DNA of 64,000 nucleotides from an uncultured Mycoplasmatota bacterium (GTDB taxonomy: Bacteria; Bacillota_I; Bacilli_A; RF39; UBA660). The notes below the pieces were generated by a model. That model ran no database searches and had not been told where the DNA came from. It worked only from the letters and a program-made list of their open reading frames with translations. Shown here one piece after another: positions 2,940 to 50,446 of the stretch. The stretch is taken from the NCBI GenBank assembly GCA_900546275.1, contig URCH01000003.1, forward strand, positions 37,991-101,990, written 5' to 3'. Position 1 is the stretch's first letter; each line of letters opens with the position of its first letter. The position numbers were made by a program, and so were the translations under genes.

Positions 2940-5081
2940 TTAAATTTGTTGTATTGTTTCATATAAACTAAACATTGGAATTACTATTGATAAAACAATT
3001 ACACCAACTATTGCAGTTAAGAAAACAAGTAATATTGGTTCCATTAATGTTTTAATTTTAGTAACCATATCTTTATGTAAGTCTTGATAGTATACAGAGA
3101 CTTTCTGCATCATTTCTGCTAATTGACCAGTACTTTCACCAGTCACCAACATCTCATATGCTGGAATTGGGAAAGCCCAATGATCCTTGAATGCCAAAGA
3201 TATTTTTTCACCCCTAGCAAGATTTGCAACCGTATCAACTATTATCATCTTATATATTTCATTATTAGTTATTTTATTTAATATATCCATACTATCAGTT
3301 ATATAAACATTATGAAATAATAAGGATGAAAAAGTTTTTGTAAGCATTGTAACTTCATTATATATTATTACATTTCCAATAACAGGTAAATGCATTAAGA
3401 ACCATTGCATTATAGTTCTAAATGGAGTTACTTTTTTATATAAAACAATTATTAATATAATAAATAAAACAATACCAAGTACAATAAATAATATATTTGC
3501 TTTAATAAAATCACTGACTGCTATTACAAATCTAGTAAACGCAGGGATCTTAGATGCATCCATTGATTCATACATTTTAACAAATTGTGGTACAACAAAT
3601 ATTAATATAAAAGTAATTACTACTATTGAAATAAAAAATACAATAGATGGATACATCATAGCATTAACCATTTGTTTTTTAGTTTGGTTTGCTTCGGTAT
3701 AATATTCAGCCATATCATCAAGTGACTCAGTTAATTCACCAGTTAATTCTGAAGCTTTAACCATATTTACCAATAATTTTGGAAATGTATTTCCTTGTTT
3801 TGCCATGGCGCTACTAAAACTTTCACCAGTTGATAAATCATATATCATTGTTCTAAATATATTTTTATATTTTTTTTGTTTATATTGTCTAGAAAGTATT
3901 TTTAATGCTTCAACTAAAGTAATACCTGCTTTTAAATAAGTAGATAATTGAGTTAAAAAGAATACTAAGTCTTTTGTTTTAAATTTTGGATTACCAGCTT
4001 CTCTATATAAATTCTGAATAAGCCAGTTAGTTTTTATACTATATACTTCATAACCTTCACTAAGTAAAAATGAGTGAACTTCTACTTTTGAATATGCAGC
4101 AAATCGTTCTTTAACTATTTTCCCTTCAGGATTTTTAGCTTCATATACATATACTATTTTATTTGCACTTTTTTCAGCGTCTTTTCCATCAAATTCAAGC
4201 ATTAGAGCTTGTCTATTTATATCTCTTTTGTTTCTTGCATTCTTAACAAATGATATATTATAAAATGCATTTTTAATCTTTTTACCAATAAGAGAAGGTA
4301 TTGTAGGAAGCATTTTAAAGAAAGCAGCAAGTTTTTGACTAGAAGTCATTTGATTTCTTTGTTTCTTTAGTTCTTCTTTTGCTTGTCTAACTTTTTCTTT
4401 TTCTAATTTTCTTTCTTCTTGTTCTTCAAGTTTTTTTCTAAGTTTTTCTTCTCTTAATTTTTCTTTTTCTAATTCTTTTGCAGTTTGTTTCTCTAACTTT
4501 TCTTTTTTTAATTTTTCTTTTTCTTCTTGTTTTTTTATTCTTTGTAAATACTTATCATCATTTTGTTTTAATAATTTTCTTTGTTCACGTAATTCTTCTT
4601 TTCTTAATCTTTTTTCTTCTCTAGCTTTTTCTCTTTTAGCAATTAGTTCATTCTTTTTTTGAATTCTTTCTTGTTGTTTTAAAAGTTTTTCTGCTTGTAA
4701 TTTTTCTTTTTTCTCTTTTCTTAATAATTTTCTTTGTTCATATAATTCTTCTTTTTTTAATCTTTTTTCTTCTCTTATTTTTTCTTTTTTAGCAATTAAT
4801 TCATTTTTTCTTTGAATTCTTTCTTGTTTTCTTAAAGTTTTTTCGGCATTATCGACATTATCAACATTATGTTTTTTATTTTTTAATAACATTTTATATA
4901 AATAAATAAAAGGTGTTGCAATTAAATATAAAACATATAAAATTCCTTTTAATGAATACATAATAAATTTAAATATATTATAAAATACAAAAAGTAAACC
5001 TAGAAATGGATACTTTATAAATTTTAATATAGTTGACAAAATATTATTACTTTTATTCGCCATATATTCATGCACTCCCAT
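2940..5081 (-). CDS. pilC: Type IV pilus platform protein PilC/GspF with a ~300-aa N-terminal extension (TM helix plus K/E-rich coiled coil)
   Basis: The C-terminal ~400 aa carry two GspF-type domains, including the IVYVYEAKNPEGKIVKERF start-like motif and a polytopic membrane region. The N-terminus has one hydrophobic helix followed by a lysine/glutamate-rich repeat. The likely true start is the second Met (MANKS...), which is preceded by a GGGAG ribosome-binding site. Confidence 0.8.
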   Translation of the reverse strand: MGVHEYMANKSNNILSTILKFIKYPFLGLLFVFYNIFKFIMYSLKGILYVLYLIATPFIYLYKMLLKNKKHNVDNVDNAEKTLRKQERIQRKNELIAKKEKIREEKRLKKEELYEQRKLLRKEKKEKLQAEKLLKQQERIQKKNELIAKREKAREEKRLRKEELREQRKLLKQNDDKYLQRIKKQEEKEKLKKEKLEKQTAKELEKEKLREEKLRKKLEEQEERKLEKEKVRQAKEELKKQRNQMTSSQKLAAFFKMLPTIPSLIGKKIKNAFYNISFVKNARNKRDINRQALMLEFDGKDAEKSANKIVYVYEAKNPEGKIVKERFAAYSKVEVHSFLLSEGYEVYSIKTNWLIQNLYREAGNPKFKTKDLVFFLTQLSTYLKAGITLVEALKILSRQYKQKKYKNIFRTMIYDLSTGESFSSAMAKQGNTFPKLLVNMVKASELTGELTESLDDMAEYYTEANQTKKQMVNAMMYPSIVFFISIVVITFILIFVVPQFVKMYESMDASKIPAFTRFVIAVSDFIKANILFIVLGIVLFIILIIVLYKKVTPFRTIMQWFLMHLPVIGNVIIYNEVTMLTKTFSSLLFHNVYITDSMDILNKITNNEIYKMIIVDTVANLARGEKISLAFKDHWAFPIPAYEMLVTGESTGQLAEMMQKVSVYYQDLHKDMVTKIKTLMEPILLVFLTAIVGVIVLSIVIPMFSLYETIQQI
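4524..4840. repeat. ~150-bp tandem duplication inside pilC, encoding two copies of QERIQ(R/K)KNELIAK(K/R)EK(I/A)REEKRL(K/R)KEEL(Y/R)EQRKLL
   Basis: The DNA copies at ~4570-4690 and ~4721-4840 are about 90% identical with a ~151-153 bp period. The protein repeats are clear in the supplied translation. Confidence 0.7.
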
Positions 5082-8498: not shown

Positions 8499-10268
8499 TT
8501 AATCTTGTTTTTTTAAATCTATAATTCTTTGTAATAATTTTGCTTTTTCTATAGGTGATAATTCATTATGTATTTTTTCACCTAAATTATTGCATTCTTT
8601 TTTTAAATTGAATTCATTAATTACATTTATGTAATCATCTATTTCATCTTGCGTAAATTCATCTTTCAAGCCTAAACTATTAATTTCACCTAACACATTA
8701 AGCAATTTTTCATTTTCACTTGACAAATGTGTAATAAAATCAGCTTCATTTATTCCATCAATTGAACTATTTCTTTTATAATAATAACTAATTTCATAAG
8801 CAAGTTTTCTATATTTTTCTGTTGGTATATAAGTAACCTTTCTATCGTATGCTTTAATTACACTAGGACTTTTTAACATATAATATATTAAGTACATTTG
8901 TGCTTTTTCGTATTTAGTGTATTTTTTCCTTTCTTTTTTTTCTACATTTTGTATGTTTTTTTCAACTGGTTTTATTTTACTTTTTAATAAATCTATATCT
9001 ATACCTGATTCATTACTTATTTTTTGTAGTGTTAATTCTTTTAATATATCATCATCAATTTTATTTAACTCCTCAATAACACTATTAATATAATTAGCTT
9101 TTTCTATATTGTTATTAAAGTTTTTGCCTTTTTTTAAGTACATTAATTTAAAGTCCATTACATTAATTGGATTATTTAATTTATATTCAAATCTTTCTTT
9201 TCCATATTTTTTTATATAATCGTCTGGATCTAAATCTTCTTCCAATCTAATTATTTTAGGAATTATTCCCATACTATTTAATTCAGTTGAACATGAAAAT
9301 GTAGCTTTTGCTCCTGCATCATCACCGTCAAAACATAAAATTATATTTTTTGCCATTCTTTTTATCAAATTAGCTTGAGTTTTTGTAACAGAAGTTCCCA
9401 TAGTAGCAACTACATTTTTAATTCCAACAGAATACAATCTAATAACATCCATGAACCCTTCAACTATTATTATTTGATCTTTTTTTCTAGCTTCATCTTT
9501 TGCTCTGTGATAATTATATAAAAGTTCCCCTTTTTTAAATATTTCTGTTTCCATTGTATTTATATATTTGGAATCTTTTTCACCATTATATATTCTACCA
9601 CTATATCCAACTATATTACCTTTAGTATCATAAAGGGGAAACATTATCCTGTTATAATAGATATCTGTATATCCTCTATCTCTTTTTACAACTAACCCGC
9701 TTTTAATCATGTTTTCTTTACTGTATTTTTTATTTGTAAGTAATCTTACCAACATAGTATCATCTTTTAAGGCTAGTCCAATTTGAAATTCTTTTATTAT
9801 TTCATCATCTATTTTTCTTGAATGTAGATATTCTTTAGCTTTTTTACCTTCAACTGTATTTATATTATTTTGATAAAATTTTGTGCTTATATCATATATA
9901 TCATATAATTCTTGGTTAGGTACTATTTTATTTTGTATTTTTCCAATGTTAACGCTTATACCAGCATAATCTGCAACTGTCTTTAATGCTTCTCTAAATG
10001 ATATATTTTGATAATCTTGAATAAATTTAAATACATTTCCTGTTGCTCCACAAGTAAAGCATGTATAAATCTGTTTTTCCTTAGAAACACTCATACTTGG
10101 AGAATGGTCATCGTGAAATGGACATACACCAAAGTAATTTTTACCTTTTTGTGTTAATGGAATATATTTAGATATTATATCTACAATATCTACACTACTT
10201 CTAATATTACTTATTTCCTCGTTTGTTAAAATGTCCATATACCACACCCTAATAATAATATACGACAA
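8499..10268 (-). CDS. dnaG: DNA primase DnaG
   Basis: Zinc-ribbon [13 protein letters not shown]...CFTCG, a TOPRIM domain (EGFMDV, DGDDAG) and a C-terminal helicase-interaction domain. The true start is probably the internal Met (MDILTNEEI...). Confidence 0.95.
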
Positions 10269-10340
10269 AAATTTCCAATTTCCTTTTTTTTATTCATTTT
10301 TTTTAATATTTTAACCATATTATTTAATAGAGGTGATTTT

Positions 10341-10883
10341 TTGAGTTTAAAAAAAATAAAAATAATATCAATTTTTGGTATTTTTGCTTTAAATTTTATT
10401 AGTCATTTTTTATATGAATGGATGCCAAATACCTTATTTTCAATATTTTTTCCTGTAAATGAAAGTATATTCGAACATATGAAAATGATTTCTACTTCAA
10501 TTCTTATATATAGTATTATAGAATATATAATTTTAAAGAAAACAAAAACTAATTATAACAATTATTTATTTAGTATATTTATATCTTGTATAGGAAATAT
10601 TATTATTTTTCTAATTATGTATTTACCTATATATTATAAAATTGGAGAAAAACTTATATTAACTATAATATTGTTATTTATATCAATTGTTATTACAGAA
10701 TTTATTTCATATAAAATTCTATGTACTAAAAAAAACTATACTTGGTTAAATATAGCTTCTTTGTTAATGATTATTATTTTATATATAATTTTTGGATATT
10801 TAACATATAATCCAATAATTTGTCCGTTATTTTTTGATCCATTAAATGAAAAATATGGAATAAATAACTACTTAATTACATAA
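10341..10883 (+). CDS. Hypothetical polytopic membrane protein
   Basis: Five or six predicted hydrophobic helices. No family recognised. Confidence 0.35.
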   Translation: MSLKKIKIISIFGIFALNFISHFLYEWMPNTLFSIFFPVNESIFEHMKMISTSILIYSIIEYIILKKTKTNYNNYLFSIFISCIGNIIIFLIMYLPIYYKIGEKLILTIILLFISIVITEFISYKILCTKKNYTWLNIASLLMIIILYIIFGYLTYNPIICPLFFDPLNEKYGINNYLIT

Positions 10884-42329: not shown

Positions 42330-43025
42330 CTATATCTTTTTTATTAGTTGTTTAAAGGTTTTTATCTCATATGTAGGTATATAACATGTATCATTTACTA
42401 TACCTTTCTTGTTATACCAACATGTATCTATACCATATAAATTTCCACCCTTTATATCAGAATGTAATGAGTCTCCTATTATTAATACTTCTTCTTTATT
42501 TTTTAAGTTTAACTTTTTAAATAAATAATCATAATATTCTATAGATGATTTTGAATAGCCACAATCTTGTGCTGATACAATATCTAAAACAATATGTAAT
42601 ATTTTTATTTGTTGTAGTTTTTTTATAGCTTGTTTTCTATTTCCATTTGTTGAAATAATAATATCTGAAAATTTATTTAAAAGAATTAAGTTATTATCAT
42701 AATTTTCTGTTTTTTTTACTTTTTCTGCTAACATACTTTCATAATATAAATACATTTTATAAGCAAAATTATAATTAATATCAAAAAAGCTTTTAATTAG
42801 CTCTATCCTTAATAATTCAATTTTATCTATTGAAGAAATATTTGAATTCTCATTTTTTTCTTTGGTTATATTTTCCCAATAATAAAGCTCATATTTTTTA
42901 AAATCTTCATATGTTAAATTTGTTTTAAATTTAAATTTTTTTAACATTTGATTAAATGCATAACTTGTTGAATAATCATATTCTATTAATGTATCATCTA
43001 TATCCAATAATAAATATTTATACAT
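42330..43025 (-). CDS. HAD-superfamily hydrolase
   Basis: Motif I LLDIDDTLIEY and a C-terminal GDSLHSDIKGG motif. Confidence 0.6.
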   Translation of the reverse strand: MYKYLLLDIDDTLIEYDYSTSYAFNQMLKKFKFKTNLTYEDFKKYELYYWENITKEKNENSNISSIDKIELLRIELIKSFFDINYNFAYKMYLYYESMLAEKVKKTENYDNNLILLNKFSDIIISTNGNRKQAIKKLQQIKILHIVLDIVSAQDCGYSKSSIEYYDYLFKKLNLKNKEEVLIIGDSLHSDIKGGNLYGIDTCWYNKKGIVNDTCYIPTYEIKTFKQLIKKI

Positions 43026-43033
43026 ATTTCCCC

Positions 43034-44800
43034 CTAGTTATTCAAATTATTTAAAAAATTTTTTAAGTTTTTTGAAACATTCATAGGAAGTATTTCAGAT
43101 AATTCTTCTATAGAAGCCTGTTTCATTTTTGAAATAGTTTTGTATTTTTTTATAAGCAGATTCCTTCTCTTTTGACCTATTCCCTCAATATTATCAAGTA
43201 TTCCTTCTAATGAACCTTTACTCCTAATTTGTTTATGATAATTTATTGTATAGTTATGTACTTCATCTTGCATTCTTTCTAAGTAATAAAATAAATTACT
43301 TTTTTTATTAATTTTTATTTCTTCTATTGGATCGTTTGCAAGTAAAGCCGATGTTGCATGTTTATCATCTTTTTTTAAACCTATTACTTTTATATTTAAA
43401 TTAAGTGATTTTATAACTTCACGTGCTACATGCATCTGTCCTATACCACCATCCACTATTATTAAATCAGGTCGTTCTAAATTATCTTTTAATACTCTAA
43501 AATATCTTCTATAAATTACTTCTCTCATTGTATTATAATCATCATTTTTATCAAAACTTATTTTAAACTTTCTATAATCGTTTTTACTTGGAATACCATT
43601 TTTATATACTACCATACCTGAAACGTTGTAATTTCCAAAAAGATTTGAATTATCAAATAATTCTATTCTATCTAATTTTTCTAGTTTTAATATATTTTTT
43701 AATTCTTCATTTGCTTGATATGTTCTTTGTTCATTTTTTTCTATTAAATCAAACTCTTCATTAAGTGCGATTTCTGCATTCTCATTTGCCATTTTTATTA
43801 AATTTAATTTTTCTCCTTTTAATGGAACTCTAACATTTACTTTAAGAAATGATTCTAGTAATTCTTGATTTGCTTCACTAGGTACAAGTATTTCTTTTGG
43901 AAGTATTACTCCGCTTTGATAAAAATTAGCTATATAACGTGTTAATTCCTCATCTTCATTATCTATTAGTGGAAATATTGATTTATGTCTTTCAAGTATT
44001 TTACCACTTCTTATAAAAAATACTTGTATACTAATATATCCTTTATTAACATAAAAACCAAATATATCTCTATCTATATTATCTTTTATTTCTACTTTTT
44101 GTTTTTTTAATGTAATATTTATATAATCAAGTAATTCTTTTAATTCTTGAGCTTTTTCAAATCTTAAATTGTCACTTTCTGTTTTCATTTCTTTTTTTAT
44201 TTCTTCTATTACTTCAGAATCATCACCTCTTAAAAATTTTATTATATCTGTTTTCATGTCTTTAATTTTTTCTTCATCTATAGTATTTGTACAATAACCT
44301 AGGCATTGACCTATGTGATAATAAAGGCAAGGTTTTTTATTATAAGTTTTACATTTTCTAAGTGGATATATTCTATTTAATAATTCAACTGTTTTTTTAG
44401 CAGCATACACATTTGGATATGGTCCATATAAATTGTTATGATTTTTTTTTCTATTTACATTTCTAACTACAAGTAATCTAGGAACCTTTTCGTTTGTAAG
44501 TTCAATATATGGATAGCTTTTATCATCTCTTAATAATATATTATATTTAGGATCATATTTTTTTATTAAATTAAGTTCTAGTATTAATGATTCTGTTTCA
44601 CTACCAACTACTATATATTCAAAATCAACTATTTCACTTACTAGTTTTCCTGTTTTTCCAGTATGTGTTCCTCTAAAATATGAACTAAGTCTATTTTTTA
44701 ATTTTTTTGCTTTACCAACATATATTATTACATTATCTTTATTTTTCATTAAGTAACATCCAGGTTTGTTTGGTACTAATGAAAGTTTTTCTTTTATCAT
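43034..44800 (-). CDS. uvrC: Excinuclease ABC subunit C
   Basis: GIY-YIG domain (GCYLMKN...IIYVGKAKKLKNR), UvrBC interaction region, RNase H-like endonuclease domain and a C-terminal HhH. Confidence 0.95.
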   Translation of the reverse strand: MIKEKLSLVPNKPGCYLMKNKDNVIIYVGKAKKLKNRLSSYFRGTHTGKTGKLVSEIVDFEYIVVGSETESLILELNLIKKYDPKYNILLRDDKSYPYIELTNEKVPRLLVVRNVNRKKNHNNLYGPYPNVYAAKKTVELLNRIYPLRKCKTYNKKPCLYYHIGQCLGYCTNTIDEEKIKDMKTDIIKFLRGDDSEVIEEIKKEMKTESDNLRFEKAQELKELLDYINITLKKQKVEIKDNIDRDIFGFYVNKGYISIQVFFIRSGKILERHKSIFPLIDNEDEELTRYIANFYQSGVILPKEILVPSEANQELLESFLKVNVRVPLKGEKLNLIKMANENAEIALNEEFDLIEKNEQRTYQANEELKNILKLEKLDRIELFDNSNLFGNYNVSGMVVYKNGIPSKNDYRKFKISFDKNDDYNTMREVIYRRYFRVLKDNLERPDLIIVDGGIGQMHVAREVIKSLNLNIKVIGLKKDDKHATSALLANDPIEEIKINKKSNLFYYLERMQDEVHNYTINYHKQIRSKGSLEGILDNIEGIGQKRRNLLIKKYKTISKMKQASIEELSEILPMNVSKNLKNFLNNLNN

Positions 44801-44825
44801 GCTATCACCTCATTTTTGTTAATGC

Positions 44826-46001
44826 TTAATACATTTTAATTACAAATAATAATATTATTATAAATATAGAAATAGTTATTATATTATTTTTAATAAAATT
44901 TATTAGTGAAAAATTTACATCTTCATCTAATACTACATCTACTTTTTTATATATTTTATTTTTATATGATATATCTATATATCCTATTTTTGTATCTTTT
45001 TTCATACCATAGTTTAACTTTTCTATACCATTATAATTAATTTTAATTTCATTTTTATCATAATCGTTTGGCAAATATAATAATATTGGTTCTTTTGCTT
45101 TTATTTTTTTTACAGTTTTTGGATCGTTTTTTATTTTTAATTCTACTAAGGTATCATCTTTTTTTATTATTTCTTGATATTTATAATTTTGAAAATAATA
45201 ATTATATATATTTATTGCATCTTTTACATGATTGCTACCATTTATATCTGCATTTGTAGTAACTAATAAATATTTTATATTATTGTTTCCATCAAGTGCT
45301 ATAGAAGCTAAACATCTACCTGCACCATATGTAAATCCAGTTTTACCACCTAATATATAGTTAACACTTGAATCTATAGAAGTTGCTATAGAAAATACTG
45401 TACTATAAACAGTTTTTGATTTATCTTTAAATGTATACGATTTAGAAAAAAATATTTCTTTAAATTTTTCATTTTTCATAGCCTCATTTAATAATATAGC
45501 AACTTCATCTACTGTAGAATGTTGTTTTTCATCATCTAAACCTATTGGATTTTCAAAAACTGTATTTTTTAAATTTAGTTGTTGAGCCTTTTTATTCATT
45601 AATTTAACAAAGTCTTCTTCATTTCCTGATATAGAATATGTAAGTCCTCGTACTGCATCTGCTCCACTAGCTAAAAAAGCTGCATATAATAAATCGTTAT
45701 ATGTTACATTTTGATTTTCTTTTAATCCAACAACTGCTAAATTTTGTTCTCTTAAACCTGAAAGCATATTTGATGTAATAGTAACATTTTTATCATAATC
45801 TGAAATATTTTCTATTGCAACTAAAACAGTCATTATTTTAGTAAGACTTGCTATGCTTGTTACTTGATCTTTATTTTTTTCAAATACTACTGTATTATCA
45901 TTTAAATTATACATTACGGCATTTTTACTATTTATATCAAGTCCATATGTATTTGATATAAATGTAATAAACGTTACAAATAATAAAATTATTTTTTTCA
46001 T
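44826..46001 (-). CDS. Serine-type D-Ala-D-Ala carboxypeptidase (DacB/PBP5-like)
   Basis: Signal peptide, SLTKIMT (SxxK), an SGN-like motif and a KTG motif (GKTGFT). C-terminal TM anchor. Confidence 0.8.
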   Translation of the reverse strand: MKKIILLFVTFITFISNTYGLDINSKNAVMYNLNDNTVVFEKNKDQVTSIASLTKIMTVLVAIENISDYDKNVTITSNMLSGLREQNLAVVGLKENQNVTYNDLLYAAFLASGADAVRGLTYSISGNEEDFVKLMNKKAQQLNLKNTVFENPIGLDDEKQHSTVDEVAILLNEAMKNEKFKEIFFSKSYTFKDKSKTVYSTVFSIATSIDSSVNYILGGKTGFTYGAGRCLASIALDGNNNIKYLLVTTNADINGSNHVKDAINIYNYYFQNYKYQEIIKKDDTLVELKIKNDPKTVKKIKAKEPILLYLPNDYDKNEIKINYNGIEKLNYGMKKDTKIGYIDISYKNKIYKKVDVVLDEDVNFSLINFIKNNIITISIFIIILLFVIKMY

Positions 46002-46159
46002 ATTTTCTCCATTTACATTTTTATTTAATATTACTAAATTAATTATACTCTATATAAGATAATTTTTATAAGTTATGTAAAAAAGTTTACTTGTAAATCA
46101 AAATTATCTTTTAATTAAATGATATTCATTTCATTTAATTTTAAAGCTAAAAGATTAAA

Positions 46160-46666
46160 TTAAATGTTTGTATTATATTCAATACATTTTTCTTCTAATA
46201 ATTTAAAATTGCAACACCTTTTTGCAATACTTTCATTTAAAGTACCATTAATATATTTATCATATAACTTTTTAGATCTACCATATAACTTATCATCATT
46301 ACGATTTAACCAAAATATTTGTTCCTTTAACATTTTAGTATATTTTTCTTCAGTTTTAGTTAAACATTCTTTATCTAAATCTAATTTGATAATATTTTTA
46401 TTTGTTACAGGTAACATATTATTAAAGTTAATTGCTCCCAAATCACCATTTGCAATTTTCAAAAAATCTAATGTTGTTTTCATAGTTTTATGTTTTGGTT
46501 TAGGACTTGATAACGGGGCAAAATATTTACAATCATTAACTTCAAATAGTACACCAATAAATGGTCTTAATTCTTTTTTATCATAATTATATGGAACTCT
46601 TTTATCAAATTGTCTTAAATAATCACAATATTTTGAATCCAGTCTAACTAAAATCAAGCTTTCCAT
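46160..46666 (-). CDS. toxN: Type III toxin-antitoxin toxin, ToxN/AbiQ family endoribonuclease
   Basis: Family-typical N-terminus ...YxxYLxxFDKRVP...RPFIGVLFEV...KYFAPLSSPKPKH. Length 168 aa. GAGGGTG ribosome-binding site. Immediately preceded by terminator and tandem repeats. Confidence 0.75.
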   Translation of the reverse strand: MESLILVRLDSKYCDYLRQFDKRVPYNYDKKELRPFIGVLFEVNDCKYFAPLSSPKPKHKTMKTTLDFLKIANGDLGAINFNNMLPVTNKNIIKLDLDKECLTKTEEKYTKMLKEQIFWLNRNDDKLYGRSKKLYDKYINGTLNESIAKRCCNFKLLEEKCIEYNTNI

Positions 46667-46710
46667 AGCATCACCCTCGAAAAATATTATATACTAAAAA
46701 ACAAAATAAA

Positions 46711-46730
46711 ACTAGAGTTTGCTCTCTAGT
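46711..46730 (-). terminator. Intrinsic terminator between the antitoxin repeats and toxN
   Basis: ACTAGAG-tttgct-CTCTAGT 7-bp stem. On the minus strand it is followed by TTTTATTTTGTTTTTT. Confidence 0.6.
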
Positions 46731-46733
46731 CTC

Positions 46734-46837
46734 TTTTTTAAGTTCACTGTTATGGCCGGAATCGCCACTTTTTTAAGTTCCTGTTAAAGCCGGAATCGCT
46801 TCTTTTTTAAGTTCCTCTTATAGTGGGAATCACTAGC
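46734..46837 (-). ncRNA. toxI: ToxI-like type III antitoxin RNA: three tandem 34-35-nt repeats
   Basis: Minus-strand units are gctagtgattcccactataagaggaacttaaaaaa, gaagcgattccggctttaacaggaacttaaaaaa and gtggcgattccggccataacagtgaacttaaaaaa. A candidate -10 TATAAT lies on the minus strand at 46871-46866. The units are GC-rich islands in an AT-rich intergenic region. Confidence 0.65.
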
Positions 46838-46994
46838 TTTTTTTGTGCTACTATGTAGCATTATTATTATATGCATAAATGCACAACATAATCACTTATG
46901 TGCCAATAATATACCATAAATATATTAAAATGTCTAGTTTTCTCAAAAAAGTTTTATATTTTTTTATTATATAAAATAAAATTCAAATATGTTT

Positions 46995-47583
46995 TTATAT
47001 ATCCCCAGTATATATTTTTTTCATTATTAAGTTAACACTTGATACTACAACATTTGATGTGCCTTCTTCACCCAATATATCAACTGTAGCTTGTAGAATT
47101 GTTGCTTCTTCAAATCTGAAAAGTATAGTTTGGGAAAAGCTCATTTGTTTTCCATCTCCGGCCTCTAATTTAAATACAGTATCTTTAAGTGCTGCCCCTT
47201 CACCTGTTTTAATGTAAAAAGTTGCACCATGTGTATCGTCTGCTTTTTCTATTAGACCTGAAAAAGTAATTTCATAAATTCCTGGTTGTACTTCTATTTG
47301 ACTTTCACTTGGTAAAGAAAAATATGGAGATACGCTAGGAATAAACCAAGTATTTTCAAGATTCATTTCACCAGATATAACTGAATCTTGAAAACTTGTA
47401 AAAAATATACCCTCGTTTGAAGATACAGCAATGGGCCCAATTGGCCCTTGCATTCCTTGAGGGCCTGTCATACCCGTTGGACATTGAGGTCAAGTTGGTC
47501 CAACTGTTTGATATTCCAGCACATAATAATTTATTTCTAAGTTTTATATTTTCTTCCAATTCTTGATATTTATCTAAAGACAT
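46995..47583 (-). pseudogene. BclA-like collagen-repeat (exosporium/surface) protein with a frameshift and interrupted GXX triplets
   Basis: The N-terminal ORF (MSLDKYQELEENIK...) and the C-terminal ORF (MTGPQGMQGPIGP... plus a BclA_C/C1q-like globular domain) are in different frames. Upstream in the C-terminal frame reads VGPT*PQCPTGMTGPQ, where TGA and TGT occupy Gly positions of the GXX repeat. Confidence 0.5.
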
Positions 47584-47650
47584 AAAAAAATACCTCCTAT
47601 CATAATATATAAGAAAGTATTTTTATTGTATAAATCAAATGTTTGATATA

Positions 47651-48649
47651 TTATTTATTTTTTAATATAAAATTATATGAATCTTTACACATTTCTTCAA
47701 TAGTTTTAGTCGTTTTAAAATTTAGCTCTTTTAATGCATAAGATGTATCTGCATAACATGCATCAATATCTCCAGGTCTTCTATTTGTAATTTTATATTT
47801 TACATCTATATTATTTACTTTAGAAAATGCATTTACAAGTTCTAAAACACTGTAACCTTTTCCAGTACCTAAGTTATATGCATCACAAATATTTTCTTTT
47901 AATATTTTTTCTATTGCTTTTATATGTCCATTAGCTAGATCAACAACATGTATGTAATCTCTTACACCTGTTCCATCAATGGTGTTATAATCATTACCAA
48001 ATATATTTAAGCATTCCAATTCTTTGTTAGCTACTTTTACAATATATGGCATTAAATTATTTGGTATATCATTTGGATTTTCTCCAAGTAATCCTGATGG
48101 ATGTGCACCTATAGGATTAAAATATCTAAGTATAGCTATACTCCATGTATTATCTGATTTATATAAATCTCTTAGTATTCCTTCAATCATTAATTTTGTT
48201 GTTCCATATGGGTTAGTTGTTGAAAGTGGAAAATCTTCTTTAATGGGTAATGAATTAGGTTTACCATAAACAGTCGCACTAGATGAAAAAGCTATTTTTT
48301 TGCAATTATATTCATTCATAACTTCTAATAAAGAAAGGGTTGAATCTATATTATTTCTATAATACATAAGTGGTTTTTTTACTGATTCTCCAACAGCTTT
48401 GTATCCAGCAAAATGTATAACGGCATTTATTCGATTTTCACTAAATATTTTATTTAATATTTGCTTATCACAGACATCTCCTTCGTAAAATTTAAAATCT
48501 TTTTTTGTTATTGTTTTTATTTTTTCAATAACATCTTTTTTAGAATTTGAAAAGTTATCTATTACTACAACTTCATAATTATTATTTAAAAGCTCAACAA
48601 CAGTATGGCTTCCAATATATCCAGTTCCACCAGTCACTAATATTTTCAT
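47651..48649 (-). CDS. galE: UDP-glucose 4-epimerase
   Basis: Rossmann motif VTGGTGYIGSH, the YxxxK catalytic dyad region and 332 aa. Confidence 0.9.
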   Translation of the reverse strand: MKILVTGGTGYIGSHTVVELLNNNYEVVVIDNFSNSKKDVIEKIKTITKKDFKFYEGDVCDKQILNKIFSENRINAVIHFAGYKAVGESVKKPLMYYRNNIDSTLSLLEVMNEYNCKKIAFSSSATVYGKPNSLPIKEDFPLSTTNPYGTTKLMIEGILRDLYKSDNTWSIAILRYFNPIGAHPSGLLGENPNDIPNNLMPYIVKVANKELECLNIFGNDYNTIDGTGVRDYIHVVDLANGHIKAIEKILKENICDAYNLGTGKGYSVLELVNAFSKVNNIDVKYKITNRRPGDIDACYADTSYALKELNFKTTKTIEEMCKDSYNFILKNK

Positions 48650-48657
48650 AATACCTC

Positions 48658-49722
48658 CTATAAATTATCAATTTGATCTTTTAAAGTATGAACTTTATTT
48701 AAACTTTCTTTTTTACCAATTATAATTAAATTGTCAGAATCTATACAAAAAATATCTTCAACATCCAATAATACAATCTTTTTATTATTGCAATAAACTA
48801 TATTATTATTTGAATCGATTATTTGAACATTCCCTTTAACAATATTATTATTTTCATCTTTTGGTAGATAACGTTCAATCGAATTCCAAGTACCAATATC
48901 ATCCCAACCAATATTAGTAGGTATTGTATATACATTTTTTGATTTTTCCATAATTGCATAGTCAATTGATATTTTTGTACAATCGTTATATGCCTTATTC
49001 AAAAATTCATAATATTTTGGATTTGAAAAATCTGGTAAATTTATTAGCAAATTATACTCATTTGGTATATTAACTTTACATTCTTCTAGCATATTTTTAA
49101 CATTAAAAATGAACATTCCAGCATTCCACAAATATTTTTTACTTTGATAATATTCATTTGCTAATTCCAAATTTGGTTTTTCAACAAACTTAGAAACCTT
49201 TAATACTTTACTACTGCCTGGTTCAAATTTTATATATCCATAACCAGTTTCAGCTCTCGTAGGTTCTATTCCTATAGTAACAATTGCGTTTGTATTATTA
49301 TTTACAAACTCATTGGCCAAAACTATATCATTTATAAATTTTTCTTCATTTTTTATATAACTGTCTGAAGAAATACAAACAACATTTGCATTTTTATAAA
49401 TGTTCTTAATATATATGGTAGACAGCAAAATACATGGTGCAGTATTCTTAGAACAAGGCTCAGTTATAATATTTAAATCTTTTATATCAGGTATTTGTTT
49501 TTTTATTTTATCTATATAATCATAATTTGTTATTATAAATATTCTATCACTAGGAATCAATTTATTGATTCTTTCATATGTCATTTGCAACATAGATTTT
49601 TCATTTAACAGCGATAAAAATTGTTTTGGATTGTCAGATGTAGACTGAGGCCAAAATCTAGTACCAATCCCACCTGCCATTATTAAGGCACATAACATAC
49701 TATTTCTCCTTCTTTTTAACAA
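48658..49722 (-). CDS. manC: Mannose-1-phosphate guanylyltransferase (NTP-transferase domain only)
   Basis: LIMAGGIGTRFWP nucleotide-binding motif. Length 354 aa. No cupin/PMI domain. Confidence 0.75.
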   Translation of the reverse strand: MLKRRRNSMLCALIMAGGIGTRFWPQSTSDNPKQFLSLLNEKSMLQMTYERINKLIPSDRIFIITNYDYIDKIKKQIPDIKDLNIITEPCSKNTAPCILLSTIYIKNIYKNANVVCISSDSYIKNEEKFINDIVLANEFVNNNTNAIVTIGIEPTRAETGYGYIKFEPGSSKVLKVSKFVEKPNLELANEYYQSKKYLWNAGMFIFNVKNMLEECKVNIPNEYNLLINLPDFSNPKYYEFLNKAYNDCTKISIDYAIMEKSKNVYTIPTNIGWDDIGTWNSIERYLPKDENNNIVKGNVQIIDSNNNIVYCNNKKIVLLDVEDIFCIDSDNLIIIGKKESLNKVHTLKDQIDNL

Positions 49723-50446
49723 ATGATGGTTTTCCGTTTATATATTTAAAGAAACCAAACGAATAAATTATTCTCTTAAATCTTGCTTTATTAAATTGTT
49801 TAAATAGACGATATATTCCTTCTAATCCCAATTTACTGATTTTTTCTGGTGCTCTTTTAATTTTACCAGAAACGAAGTCAACAGTTCCACCACTTCCAAT
49901 AGCAAATTTAACACCTAACTGTGTCAATTCTTTTAAATTATCTCTCATAAAGAATTCCTGTTTTGGAGCACCAAATCCGACAAAAATTATATCTGGTTTT
50001 GACTTTTTTATATGAGACATACAATCATCTACAAATTTTTTAGAAAATGGATAATCTTCATATGAAGGTGAATAGCCATCTGCTTTTATTCCATATTTTT
50101 CCTTTACATTTACTACTGCCTGGGCATTTGAATCTTCTTTTCCCCCCAAGAAGTACAATTTCATGTTATTTTTTTTCGCATATTCACAAAAATCATATAC
50201 AATTTCACTGCCAGATAATTTTTCTACTTTTTTAAATTTCTTATCTTTTAATCTAGCAAATTTTAATGGAACTTGTCCATCTATAGTAGCATAATTAGAA
50301 TTAACAAAATCATACAAATCTTTATTAGTATTTGCCAATCTAATAATCTGTGCATTTAATGTTACAATACACTTAGTTTTTTCATTATCTATTTCAAATA
50401 AATCTTTTTTATTTTTAATATTTATATTTAAATTACAATATTTCAT
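49700..50446 (-). CDS. WecB/TagA/CpsF family (GT26) glycosyltransferase
   Basis: Family-like motifs TIDGQVPLKFARL and FLGGKED. Confidence 0.7.
   Translation of the reverse strand: MKYCNLNINIKNKKDLFEIDNEKTKCIVTLNAQIIRLANTNKDLYDFVNSNYATIDGQVPLKFARLKDKKFKKVEKLSGSEIVYDFCEYAKKNNMKLYFLGGKEDSNAQAVVNVKEKYGIKADGYSPSYEDYPFSKKFVDDCMSHIKKSKPDIIFVGFGAPKQEFFMRDNLKELTQLGVKFAIGSGGTVDFVSGKIKRAPEKISKLGLEGIYRLFKQFNKARFKRIIYSFGFFKYINGKPSFVKKKEK

Follow-up and report, generated by a model that had tools for sequence, protein, structure and literature searches.

A probably functional type III toxin-antitoxin module of the ToxIN/AbiQ family in an uncultured Mycoplasmatota bacterium, shared with many uncultured gut Bacilli

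We analyzed a stretch of 64,000 nucleotides from an uncultured Mycoplasmatota bacterium (contig URCH01000003.1; hereafter the window, whose positions are used as coordinates throughout) and found that it carries a ToxIN/AbiQ-family type III toxin-antitoxin module, which is very probably functional. The locus forms a cassette of ~810 bp (46157..46968), all features of which are read on the − strand: the array of RNA units, the terminator, the promoter and the ribosome-binding site (RBS) share the strand of the toxin gene, toxN. The cassette is the sole segment with homology to loci of other species. A sequence-only reading of the same DNA had proposed a complete ToxIN/AbiQ-like type III locus at this place, and the proposal is borne out by family hidden Markov models (HMMs), solved relatives, the active site, arrays in 77 of 81 homologous loci, and covariation in the RNA. 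The locus also has every feature by which Blower 2012 recognized type III loci (PMC3401426). As the same reading remarked, annotation based on proteins overlooks the RNA antitoxin half of the module.

The toxin is encoded by an open reading frame (ORF) of 168 aa at 46160..46666 (−). This ORF carries the motifs FDKRVP, RPFIGVLFEV and KYFAPLSSPK, from which a ToxN/AbiQ-family protein had been proposed. The HMM search placed the protein in Pfam family PF13958 (ToxN_toxin) with an E-value of 4e-49 and 167 bits against a cut-off of 25, and the match covered profile positions 3–159 of 159. PF13958 was the sole Pfam family matched at E ≤ 1, so that membership of the CptN or TenpN families was not found in this search. 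The AbiQ model of PADLOC matched the protein at 3.5e-41. Among proteins in the PDB, the matches were ToxN_Bt (4ATO, 1.4e-22), ToxN_Pa (2XD0, 1.2e-19), ToxN_Ec (7D8O, 4e-18) and AbiQ (4GLK, 9e-14); sequence homology to these four solved structures settles the predicted fold of ToxN.

The residues expected of an active toxin are in place. We aligned ten sequences: the ToxN of the window, ToxN_Bt, AbiQ, a homologue from a Fusobacterium plasmid, three phage-borne homologues and three further family members. In this alignment R34, G38, P51, L52, S54, Y109 and Q116 are invariant, K56 is kept in at least 90% of the sequences, and the position of S53 is occupied by either Ser or Thr. R34, G38, P51-L52, S53, S54, K56, Y109 and Q116 align with Lys33/Arg, Gly37, Pro50-Leu51, Thr52, Ser53, Lys55, Tyr110 and Gln117, which in ToxN_Pa and ToxN_Ec are catalytic or hold the RNA (PMC8860590). 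In AbiQ, Ser51 stands where ToxN has a threonine (PMC5086642). One aligned sequence departs from the others in length: the ToxN/AbiQ-family annotated protein of the Fusobacterium polymorphum plasmid pKKCOM1330A (locus L082, 574–1446) has 290 aa and consists of a ToxN domain followed by a Lys/Glu-rich C-terminal extension of ~120 aa, which has no counterpart in the other aligned sequences.

Selection on toxN was estimated against homologues at 80–98% amino-acid identity. The ratio of nonsynonymous to synonymous substitution rates (dN/dS) was 0.02–0.10, at a synonymous divergence (dS) of 0.41–1.15. The copies of two other species (L001 and L002) share 97–98% protein identity with the ToxN of the window, yet have a dS of 0.60–0.65 (dN/dS 0.02); for a small toxin, this constraint is unusually strong. 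The full-length family match, the conserved active-site residues and the low dN/dS therefore describe an intact and strongly constrained ToxN/AbiQ endoribonuclease gene. On the opposite (+) strand, a Leu/Phe/Ser-rich ORF of 140 aa (46164–46586) lies wholly within the toxN coding sequence and is most likely a shadow ORF of this AT-rich gene.

Upstream of toxN, the sequence-only reading had seen three tandem repeats of 34–35 nt at 46734–46837, on the strand of the toxin gene and with a shared ending, and both the sequence itself and Tandem Repeats Finder confirm them. The program reported a single array at 46733–46843, with a period of 34, 3.2 copies, 84% matches and a score of 148, whose units are contiguous and lack spacers. 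Unit 1 (46803..46837, 35 nt) reads GCTAGTGATTCCCACTATAAGAGGAACTTAAAAAA and is of the type GCTAGTG...C...G-A-GGAAC; unit 2 (46769..46802, 34 nt) reads GAAGCGATTCCGGCTTTAACAGGAACTTAAAAAA and is of the type GAAGCG...G...C-A-GGAAC; unit 3 (46734..46768, 35 nt) reads GTGGCGATTCCGGCCATAACAGTGAACTTAAAAAA and is of the type G[T/C]GGCG...G...C-AG-T-GAAC. All three close with GAACTTAAAAAA, and a run of seven A (AAAAAAA, 46838..46844) precedes unit 1, where it is the predicted ToxN processing site that would free the 5' end of this unit. Runs of A6–A7 border all three units as candidate cleavage sites of ToxN and match the A/AAAA and A/AAA specificities of the nearest toxins.

The units are confined to this array. 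A covariance model built from 108 related units and searched over the window matched units 1, 2 and 3 with 53.6, 56 and 46.5 bits (E 3e-9 to 1e-11), and the next match reached only 17 bits (E 0.06). Repeats scattered as a generic intergenic family, which the sequence-only reading had named as evidence that would speak against its proposal, did not appear in the 64 kb. The covariance model was used in place of a pattern search with fixed spacing, which recovered only unit 3, because the units differ in spacing.

To follow the locus in other species, one genome per species was scanned, which yielded 80 homologous loci with ToxN relatives of 60–98% identity and, with the window, a set of 81. Tandem arrays with a period of 34–38 and 2.2–4.7 copies lie upstream of toxN in almost all of the 80. 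Units of 34–38 nt delimited by A-runs occur in 77 of the 81 loci, and three is the modal number (54/81). Position-by-position identity, computed against 13 loci of other species, was 89–98% when the array and its A-runs were taken together, and 12 of these loci reached at least 93%. For the other parts of the cassette it was 87–98% at codon positions 1 and 2, 84–97% in the terminator, 71–94% in the leader and 64–85% at third codon positions. No other part of the cassette is as well conserved as the array. In locus L043, blastn found repeat-like matches downstream of toxN (~3558–3642) besides those upstream; these may belong to a second array or mark where a second locus begins in tandem.

The units of the window differ among themselves, with 65–74% identity to a reference unit. 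Since they are mutually different and conserved position by position, each unit is conserved as itself. Among the 54 three-unit loci, the GCT[A/G]GTG type, to which unit 1 of the window belongs with GCTAGTG, stands at position 1 in 44; the GAAG type stands at position 2 in 22; and the type with a 1-nt insertion in the GGAA tract stands at position 3 in 17. Perfectly homogeneous arrays were found in only 4/54. This heterogeneity is not unique to the gut clade, because ToxI_Bt is likewise heterogeneous.

One could read these patterns as evidence that the three units are distinct RNAs, each held at its own position in the array, and not interchangeable copies. The position-specific unit types speak for this, as does the contrast between 89–98% identity per position in the array and 64–85% at synonymous sites. 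If so, the array might encode an ordered heteromeric RNA ring or a program for the order of folding and processing, rather than a dosage array. Given also its structured leader and its −10-only boxes, of which one lies past the terminator, the gut-Bacilli clade might have a control circuit unlike the ToxIN paradigm. We consider this speculative and distinctly improbable. When the natural array was folded with nested pairs only, the first stem (S1) of the three units formed with probabilities of 0.90, 0.80 and 0.88; of the artificial homomeric arrays, two folded worse and one equally well. Within the limits of this nested-pairs-only model, the result is suggestive at most, and gives weak support to the notion that non-identical stems lessen mispairing between units.

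Next, we asked which RNA structure the units maintain. An explicit structure was evaluated for covariation on an alignment of 108 distinct units. The fraction of paired cells was 91.9%, compared with 79.1% in shuffled alignments (0/500 shuffles reached the observed value) and 25–50% when partners were slid. In S1, 59 units have GC and 46 have AU at pair 4-16; at pair 6-14, 55 have UA, 47 CG and 5 UG. A further pair, which we call X:Y (13-26), couples the base after GATTCC with the base two positions before GGAA; it is GC in 57 units, CG in 40, AU in 3, GU in 3 and UA in 1. The partner of Y is X and not G7, because the neighboring G7 is invariant.

The second helix joins the loop to a downstream tract. 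Its TTCC:GGAA pairing is nearly invariant within the clade, and it covaries across the wider family and within single arrays. AntiQ has TCTC:GAGA, and the three units of ToxI_Bt have ACCT:AGGT, ACTC:GAGT and GCCT:AGGC. Elsewhere in the wider family, L100 has CCTC:GAGG and CCCC:GGGG, and L102 has CCAC:GTGG, TCCC:GGGA and CCCC:GGGG. Across the wider family there are at least nine complementary pairs of tetramers. A motif-agnostic rule, consisting of a Watson-Crick helix of 4 bp, a 1-nt bulge and the X:Y pair, was satisfied by 90 of the 111 family units (shuffles: mean 13.6, maximum 23) and in 13 of 16 distant units, including AntiQ and all three ToxI_Bt units (shuffles: mean 2.1, maximum 6). The covariation supports the prediction that each repeat folds into an H-type pseudoknot with S1, the loop-tract helix, the 1-nt bulge, the X:Y pair and single-stranded tails. 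The ToxI RNAs that have been crystallized are H-type pseudoknots with single-stranded tails and a guanine interdigitated between both stems (PMC5086642); by analogy, the invariant G7 is a candidate for this guanine.

The control elements of the cassette were located by consensus scans and by alignment of many loci. The promoter P1 (46908..46936) lies ~65 nt 5' of unit 1 and combines a −35 box TAGACA (46936–46931), a spacer of 17 nt and an extended −10 box TGgTATATT (46916–46908). It belongs to a conserved pattern, T[A/T/G]GAC[A/T]-17-(TG)nTATATT(A), which a regular expression found in 58/81 loci and which forms a conserved upstream block of the multi-locus alignment. At the level of consensus, P1 is the putative promoter of the array, and the transcription start is placed from it. 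The sequence-only reading had instead pointed to a candidate TATAAT ~30 nt upstream of the first repeat. This box exists (46871–46866, 29 nt 5' of unit 1), but it has a poor −35 and lies inside the conserved leader, and the conserved promoter element is P1.

The leader (46845..46907) has three parts in most loci: a 5' hairpin, a small hairpin entering the strongly conserved GCATATAAT box, and an optional hairpin ahead of the first A-run. In the window these are the 5'-terminal hairpin HP1 (46903–46881), the small hairpin HP2, which runs into the GCATATAAT box with its TATAAT, and HP3 (GCTAC-ATA-GTAGC, 46859–46847). All three hairpins vary in their stems in a compensatory way; the variants include ACATAA/TTATGT, ACTTAA/TTAAGT, GCATAA/TTATGC and GTAAGA/TCTTAC for HP1, and GCTAC/GTAGC, GCTAT/ATAGC, GCAAC/GTTGC and GCC/GGC for HP3. 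Because short-leader loci retain only the first hairpin, P1 appears to be the universal promoter. The leader probably stabilizes the 5' end, supplies a second promoter, or both; its GCATATAAT/TATAAT box may be a second promoter that lacks a −35, or an RNA element.

Between the array and toxN, the 7-bp hairpin with a T-run that had been noted at 46711–46730 is indeed present. It forms part of an intrinsic terminator (46696..46733) with the stem ACTAGAG/CTCTAGT (46730–46711), the loop AGCAAA and the T-rich tail TTTTATTTTGTTTTTT. The minimum free energy fold of the precursor predicts the same hairpin, and the region holds three terminator-like sites where 0.2 were expected from shuffles. A terminator hairpin with a T-run follows the last A-run in 79/79 array-bearing loci, and its sequence is nearly invariant. 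Just 3' of it stands the TATATAAT box (46686..46693), which has no recognizable −35. Of 51 aligned loci, 38 have TAYAAT at this same position; the box may be a −10-only promoter of toxN or an AU-rich translation element. The RBS GAGGGTGA (46671..46678) lies 4 nt 5' of the ATG, and its consensus GAAGGTGAT is kept across loci.

From these elements, we propose how the module would work. P1, a constitutive promoter of the sigma-70 type, would drive a transcript that opens with the leader as a protective 5' hairpin, crosses the three units and mostly ends at the terminator. Read-through of the terminator would yield a smaller amount of toxN mRNA, to which an internal −10 box may contribute. ToxN, as a sequence-specific endoribonuclease, would cleave the precursor in the A-runs that flank every unit. 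Each freed unit would then fold into the pseudoknot, with 3–5 bp in S1, pairing of the loop TTCC with the downstream GGAA, the bulge and the X:Y pair, and its single-stranded tails would fill the active sites of two ToxN molecules. The product would be a closed and inactive ring of RNA and protein, most likely 3:3 as in ToxIN_Pa, ToxIN_Bt and ToxIN_Ec; the three-unit mode of the arrays is compatible with a 3:3 ring but is not evidence for it. If transcription of the locus collapsed, for instance during phage infection, the RNA would not be replenished, free ToxN would cut A-rich RNAs, and the cell would arrest. By analogy with ToxIN_Pa and AbiQ only, the outcome may be phage resistance through abortive infection.

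Several observations weigh against this account. No NCBIfam model matched the ToxN protein. No family of Rfam release 15 (4227 models) reached its threshold over 46000–47100; since ToxI sequences vary from one system to another, this does not argue against a type III assignment. (Matches to CRISPR-DR39, snR39 and CyaR at E ≤ 10 were at chance level, with none meaningfully on the repeats, and were rejected.) A strand test on wobble pairs, which counted 12 G.U against 3 A.C in well-paired positions and was ambiguous at column pair 3-17, is weak and only mildly supportive. The extra base within the GGAA tract of unit 3 interrupts the pseudoknot helix of that unit. The TATATAAT box, if active, would mean that the ratio of RNA to toxin is set by more than the terminator. 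Finally, the housekeeping surroundings of the locus leave a defense role no better supported than a selfish or stabilizing one.

The point about the boxes can be taken further. In a type III locus with different control, toxN would be expressed mainly from a −10-only promoter of its own (TATATAAT, 46693–46686) and the array also from a second internal promoter (GCATATAAT, 46871–46866), so that promoter strengths and not read-through would set the RNA:toxin ratio. Both boxes are positionally conserved across loci, both are missing from the AbiQ and ToxIN_Bt loci, and the label 'uncultured Tenericutes/Mycoplasma/Bacilli' is attached to many hosts. Promoters of Mollicutes are dominated by the −10 box. 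On the other hand, neither box has a recognizable −35 and the promoter scan called neither; strings like TATAAT are common at a guanine-cytosine (GC) content of ~24%; a start ~7 nt past the 46693–46686 box would leave almost no 5' untranslated region ahead of the RBS; and short-leader loci lack the first box while their array is still present. We regard control by two promoters as rather unlikely, though credible, and prefer transcription from P1 with read-through of the terminator.

The hosts of the 80 relatives are nearly all metagenome-assembled genomes (MAGs) of uncultured gut "Bacilli", "Tenericutes" and "Erysipelotrichaceae" from humans, rabbits, ruminants and chickens. In the window, the downstream neighbors are MutL, a HAD hydrolase, UvrC and a D-Ala-D-Ala carboxypeptidase (Dac), and the upstream neighbors are a hypothetical gene, GalE, a nucleotidyl transferase, WecG/TagA and an MBOAT protein. 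No other defense gene was found among ten neighbors tested, and no compositional island either, the GC content being 0.17–0.33 throughout with no distinct block. The sequence-only reading had suggested a defense island, which does not stand given these housekeeping neighbors and the unremarkable GC profile. Its suggestion of horizontal acquisition remains plausible on grounds other than the GC-rich repeat islands and the neighbors that it gave: homology to the 80 other species stops at the cassette borders.

When 43000–50000 of the window was compared by blastn with the 80 loci of other species, every alignment fell within ~46968..46157. Five flanking proteins were searched by tblastn against the same loci, and none recurs beside another copy. 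The flanks of the other copies are diverse (GNAT, an XRE regulator, RecG, NUDIX, helicases, MurF and UvrA), and no integrase or transposase was seen in them. Dac has no relative between 58% and 98% identity among 5.8 billion proteins, unlike ToxN, which has continuous relatives at 70–98% identity. Taken together, these comparisons point to movement of the ~810-bp cassette between lineages, by transfers that are not very recent, because dS is 0.4–0.65 even against 98%-identical proteins.

Within the species, 239 blocks of the collection contain the exact ToxN protein, with no change of context among them, and identical three units were present in 14/14 conspecific contigs examined. No empty site was recovered: the contigs with an identical Dac all carry toxIN, and the nearest other Dac homologues (55–58% identity) sit in unrelated contexts. 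A phage vector for the cassette was not found either, the relatives in IMG/VR having 37–47% identity and those in GenBank phages 31–42%. The only candidate for terminal repeats or a target-site duplication was a 77%-identical, AT-rich pair of 30-mers (46160–46189 and 46954–46983), which we judged to be chance.

Strain-level changes were seen around the cassette. The adjoining gene (46995–47583, −) is a pseudogene in the strain of the window: it has lost 5 bp (TAGGC) and acquired a stop through a G-to-T change, in comparison with an intact conspecific allele of 197 aa (L085, 5079–5672) that carries a short collagen-like G-x-x tract, GPTGPQGPTGMTGSQGMQGSIGP. Other conspecific contigs have versions of 34+158 aa or of 152 aa. 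The ORF fragments of the pseudogene (158 aa and 71 aa) had no Pfam match, and the 158-aa fragment had no NCBIfam match. On the other side, five conspecific contigs (L085, L086, L089, L090 and L091; ~9916–10786) have an extra 289-aa gene with a KilA-N domain between uvrC and the HAD hydrolase gene. This gene is missing from the window (~43025–43034) and from L084, L087 and L088, and thus represents a small insertion polymorphism among strains.

A working type III module could also have a selfish role, in which post-segregational killing maintains or stabilizes the cassette or the genomic neighborhood around it, in place of abortive infection. The locus is chromosomal, with housekeeping neighbors and no other defense genes in the ten tested; it has a fixed site and an invariant array in all conspecific contigs examined; the cassette is spread over many species in unrelated contexts; and ToxIN_Bt is known to stabilize a plasmid (PMC4615649). 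Against this stand the best-studied relatives, ToxIN_Pa and AbiQ, which are abortive-infection systems, and the finding that type III systems can be bifunctional (PMC5086642). Moreover, some copies in other species adjoin helicase or defense-like genes, and phages carry distant relatives. The two roles are not mutually exclusive, and we hold a selfish role in place of abortive infection to be unlikely.

A decaying relic, with an inactive toxin or non-working repeats, is very improbable. The pseudogene next door and the interrupted GGAA tract of unit 3 might suggest decay, but the toxN ORF is intact and of full length with its active-site residues conserved, its dN/dS is 0.02–0.10, no segment of the cassette is better conserved than the array, the exact protein recurs in the 239 blocks, and the variant seen in unit 3 is kept at position 3 by 17/54 loci. 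There is next to no chance that the repeats have nothing to do with toxN and are instead a generic intergenic repeat, an array of the CRISPR kind or a site at which a protein binds the DNA. The cmscan match to CRISPR-DR39 was sub-threshold (20 bits; gathering score 39) and fell within toxN on the + strand, off the repeats. The units stand only beside toxN in the window and in 77/81 loci, are contiguous without spacers, maintain RNA pairing by compensatory changes and are homologous to AntiQ and ToxI_Bt.

The ToxIN/AbiQ module described here is an ordinary member of a well-known family, and it leaves the known working of type III systems unchanged. What it adds to that family is a cassette shared among many uncultured gut Bacilli. 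Its promoter, leader, three units, terminator and toxin now have exact coordinates. With 80 other species and 111 distinct units, a pseudoknot of the AbiQ/ToxI_Bt type could be derived from sequence only, and because no Rfam family matches the RNA, the result could be the starting point of a covariance model with which to look for antitoxins of this sort. A single compact ToxIN cassette is thus widespread in the uncultured Bacilli and "Tenericutes" of human and animal guts, in unrelated contexts and under very strong purifying selection, which is relevant to phage-host dynamics in these poorly known bacteria. Related proteins from MAGs already bear the NCBI name "type III toxin-antitoxin system ToxN/AbiQ family toxin", and a literature search found no description of the gut clade or its RNA.

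Among known systems, AbiQ/AntiQ, which we read from the Lactococcus lactis plasmid pUCCL632E (L083; pSRQ900 type), resembles the locus of the window in the order of promoter, about three repeats of 35–36 nt, terminator and toxin. The AntiQ unit GCGGTGAATCTCCACCATCAAGTGAGAATCAAAAAA is visibly homologous to the family consensus GCGGTGATTCCCACCATAAGAGGAACTTAAAAAA, and AntiQ and the gut-clade units share the A-run boundary, the stem GGTG/CACC, a loop-tract helix, the 1-nt bulge and the X:Y pair. The ToxN of the window also has an active-site Ser like Ser51 of AbiQ. The two systems differ in that protein identity is only ~36–38%, the loop-tract helix is TTCC:GGAA in the window family and TCTC:GAGA in AntiQ, and the AntiQ units are near-identical (96%) whereas those of the window differ. 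In addition, the AbiQ locus lacks both the 65-nt leader and the −10 box after the terminator, and it is borne on a plasmid of a dairy bacterium, while the locus of the window lies on the chromosome of an uncultured gut bacterium.

ToxIN_Bt of Bacillus thuringiensis pAW63 (PDB 4ATO; read here from plasmid CP043231, L081) is the best PDB match of the window ToxN. It has units of 34 nt and A-run boundaries that fit its A/AAAA specificity; like those of the window, its three units differ from one another, and their loop-tract helix changes in a compensatory way; and its solved structure is a 3:3 triangle of H-type pseudoknots with single-stranded tails. It differs in protein identity (~29–31%), in an otherwise dissimilar unit sequence, in being plasmid-borne with a demonstrated part in retaining the plasmid, and in having no long leader, no GCATATAAT box and no TATATAAT box. 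Three repeats had been taken as a low-end count that may point to a distinct subfamily, but three is normal for this branch, because ToxI_Bt has 2.9 copies and AntiQ 2.8 (PMC5086642) and because the unit is homologous to AntiQ.

ToxIN_Pa of Pectobacterium atrosepticum pECA1039 (2XD0/2XDD) and ToxIN_Ec (7D8O) belong to the same Pfam family and fold class. They share with the locus of the window the A-P-L-[T/S]-S-P-K active-site motif and the logic of repeats, terminator and toxN, but have 36-nt units in 5.5 copies, cleave at AA/AU or GAAAU and not in a pure A-run, have an unrelated RNA sequence and occur in Gram-negative hosts. CptIN and TenpIN share the principle of tandem RNA repeats, a terminator and an endoribonuclease toxin; their toxins belong to other families, and the CptI units are longer and form a 2:2 complex.

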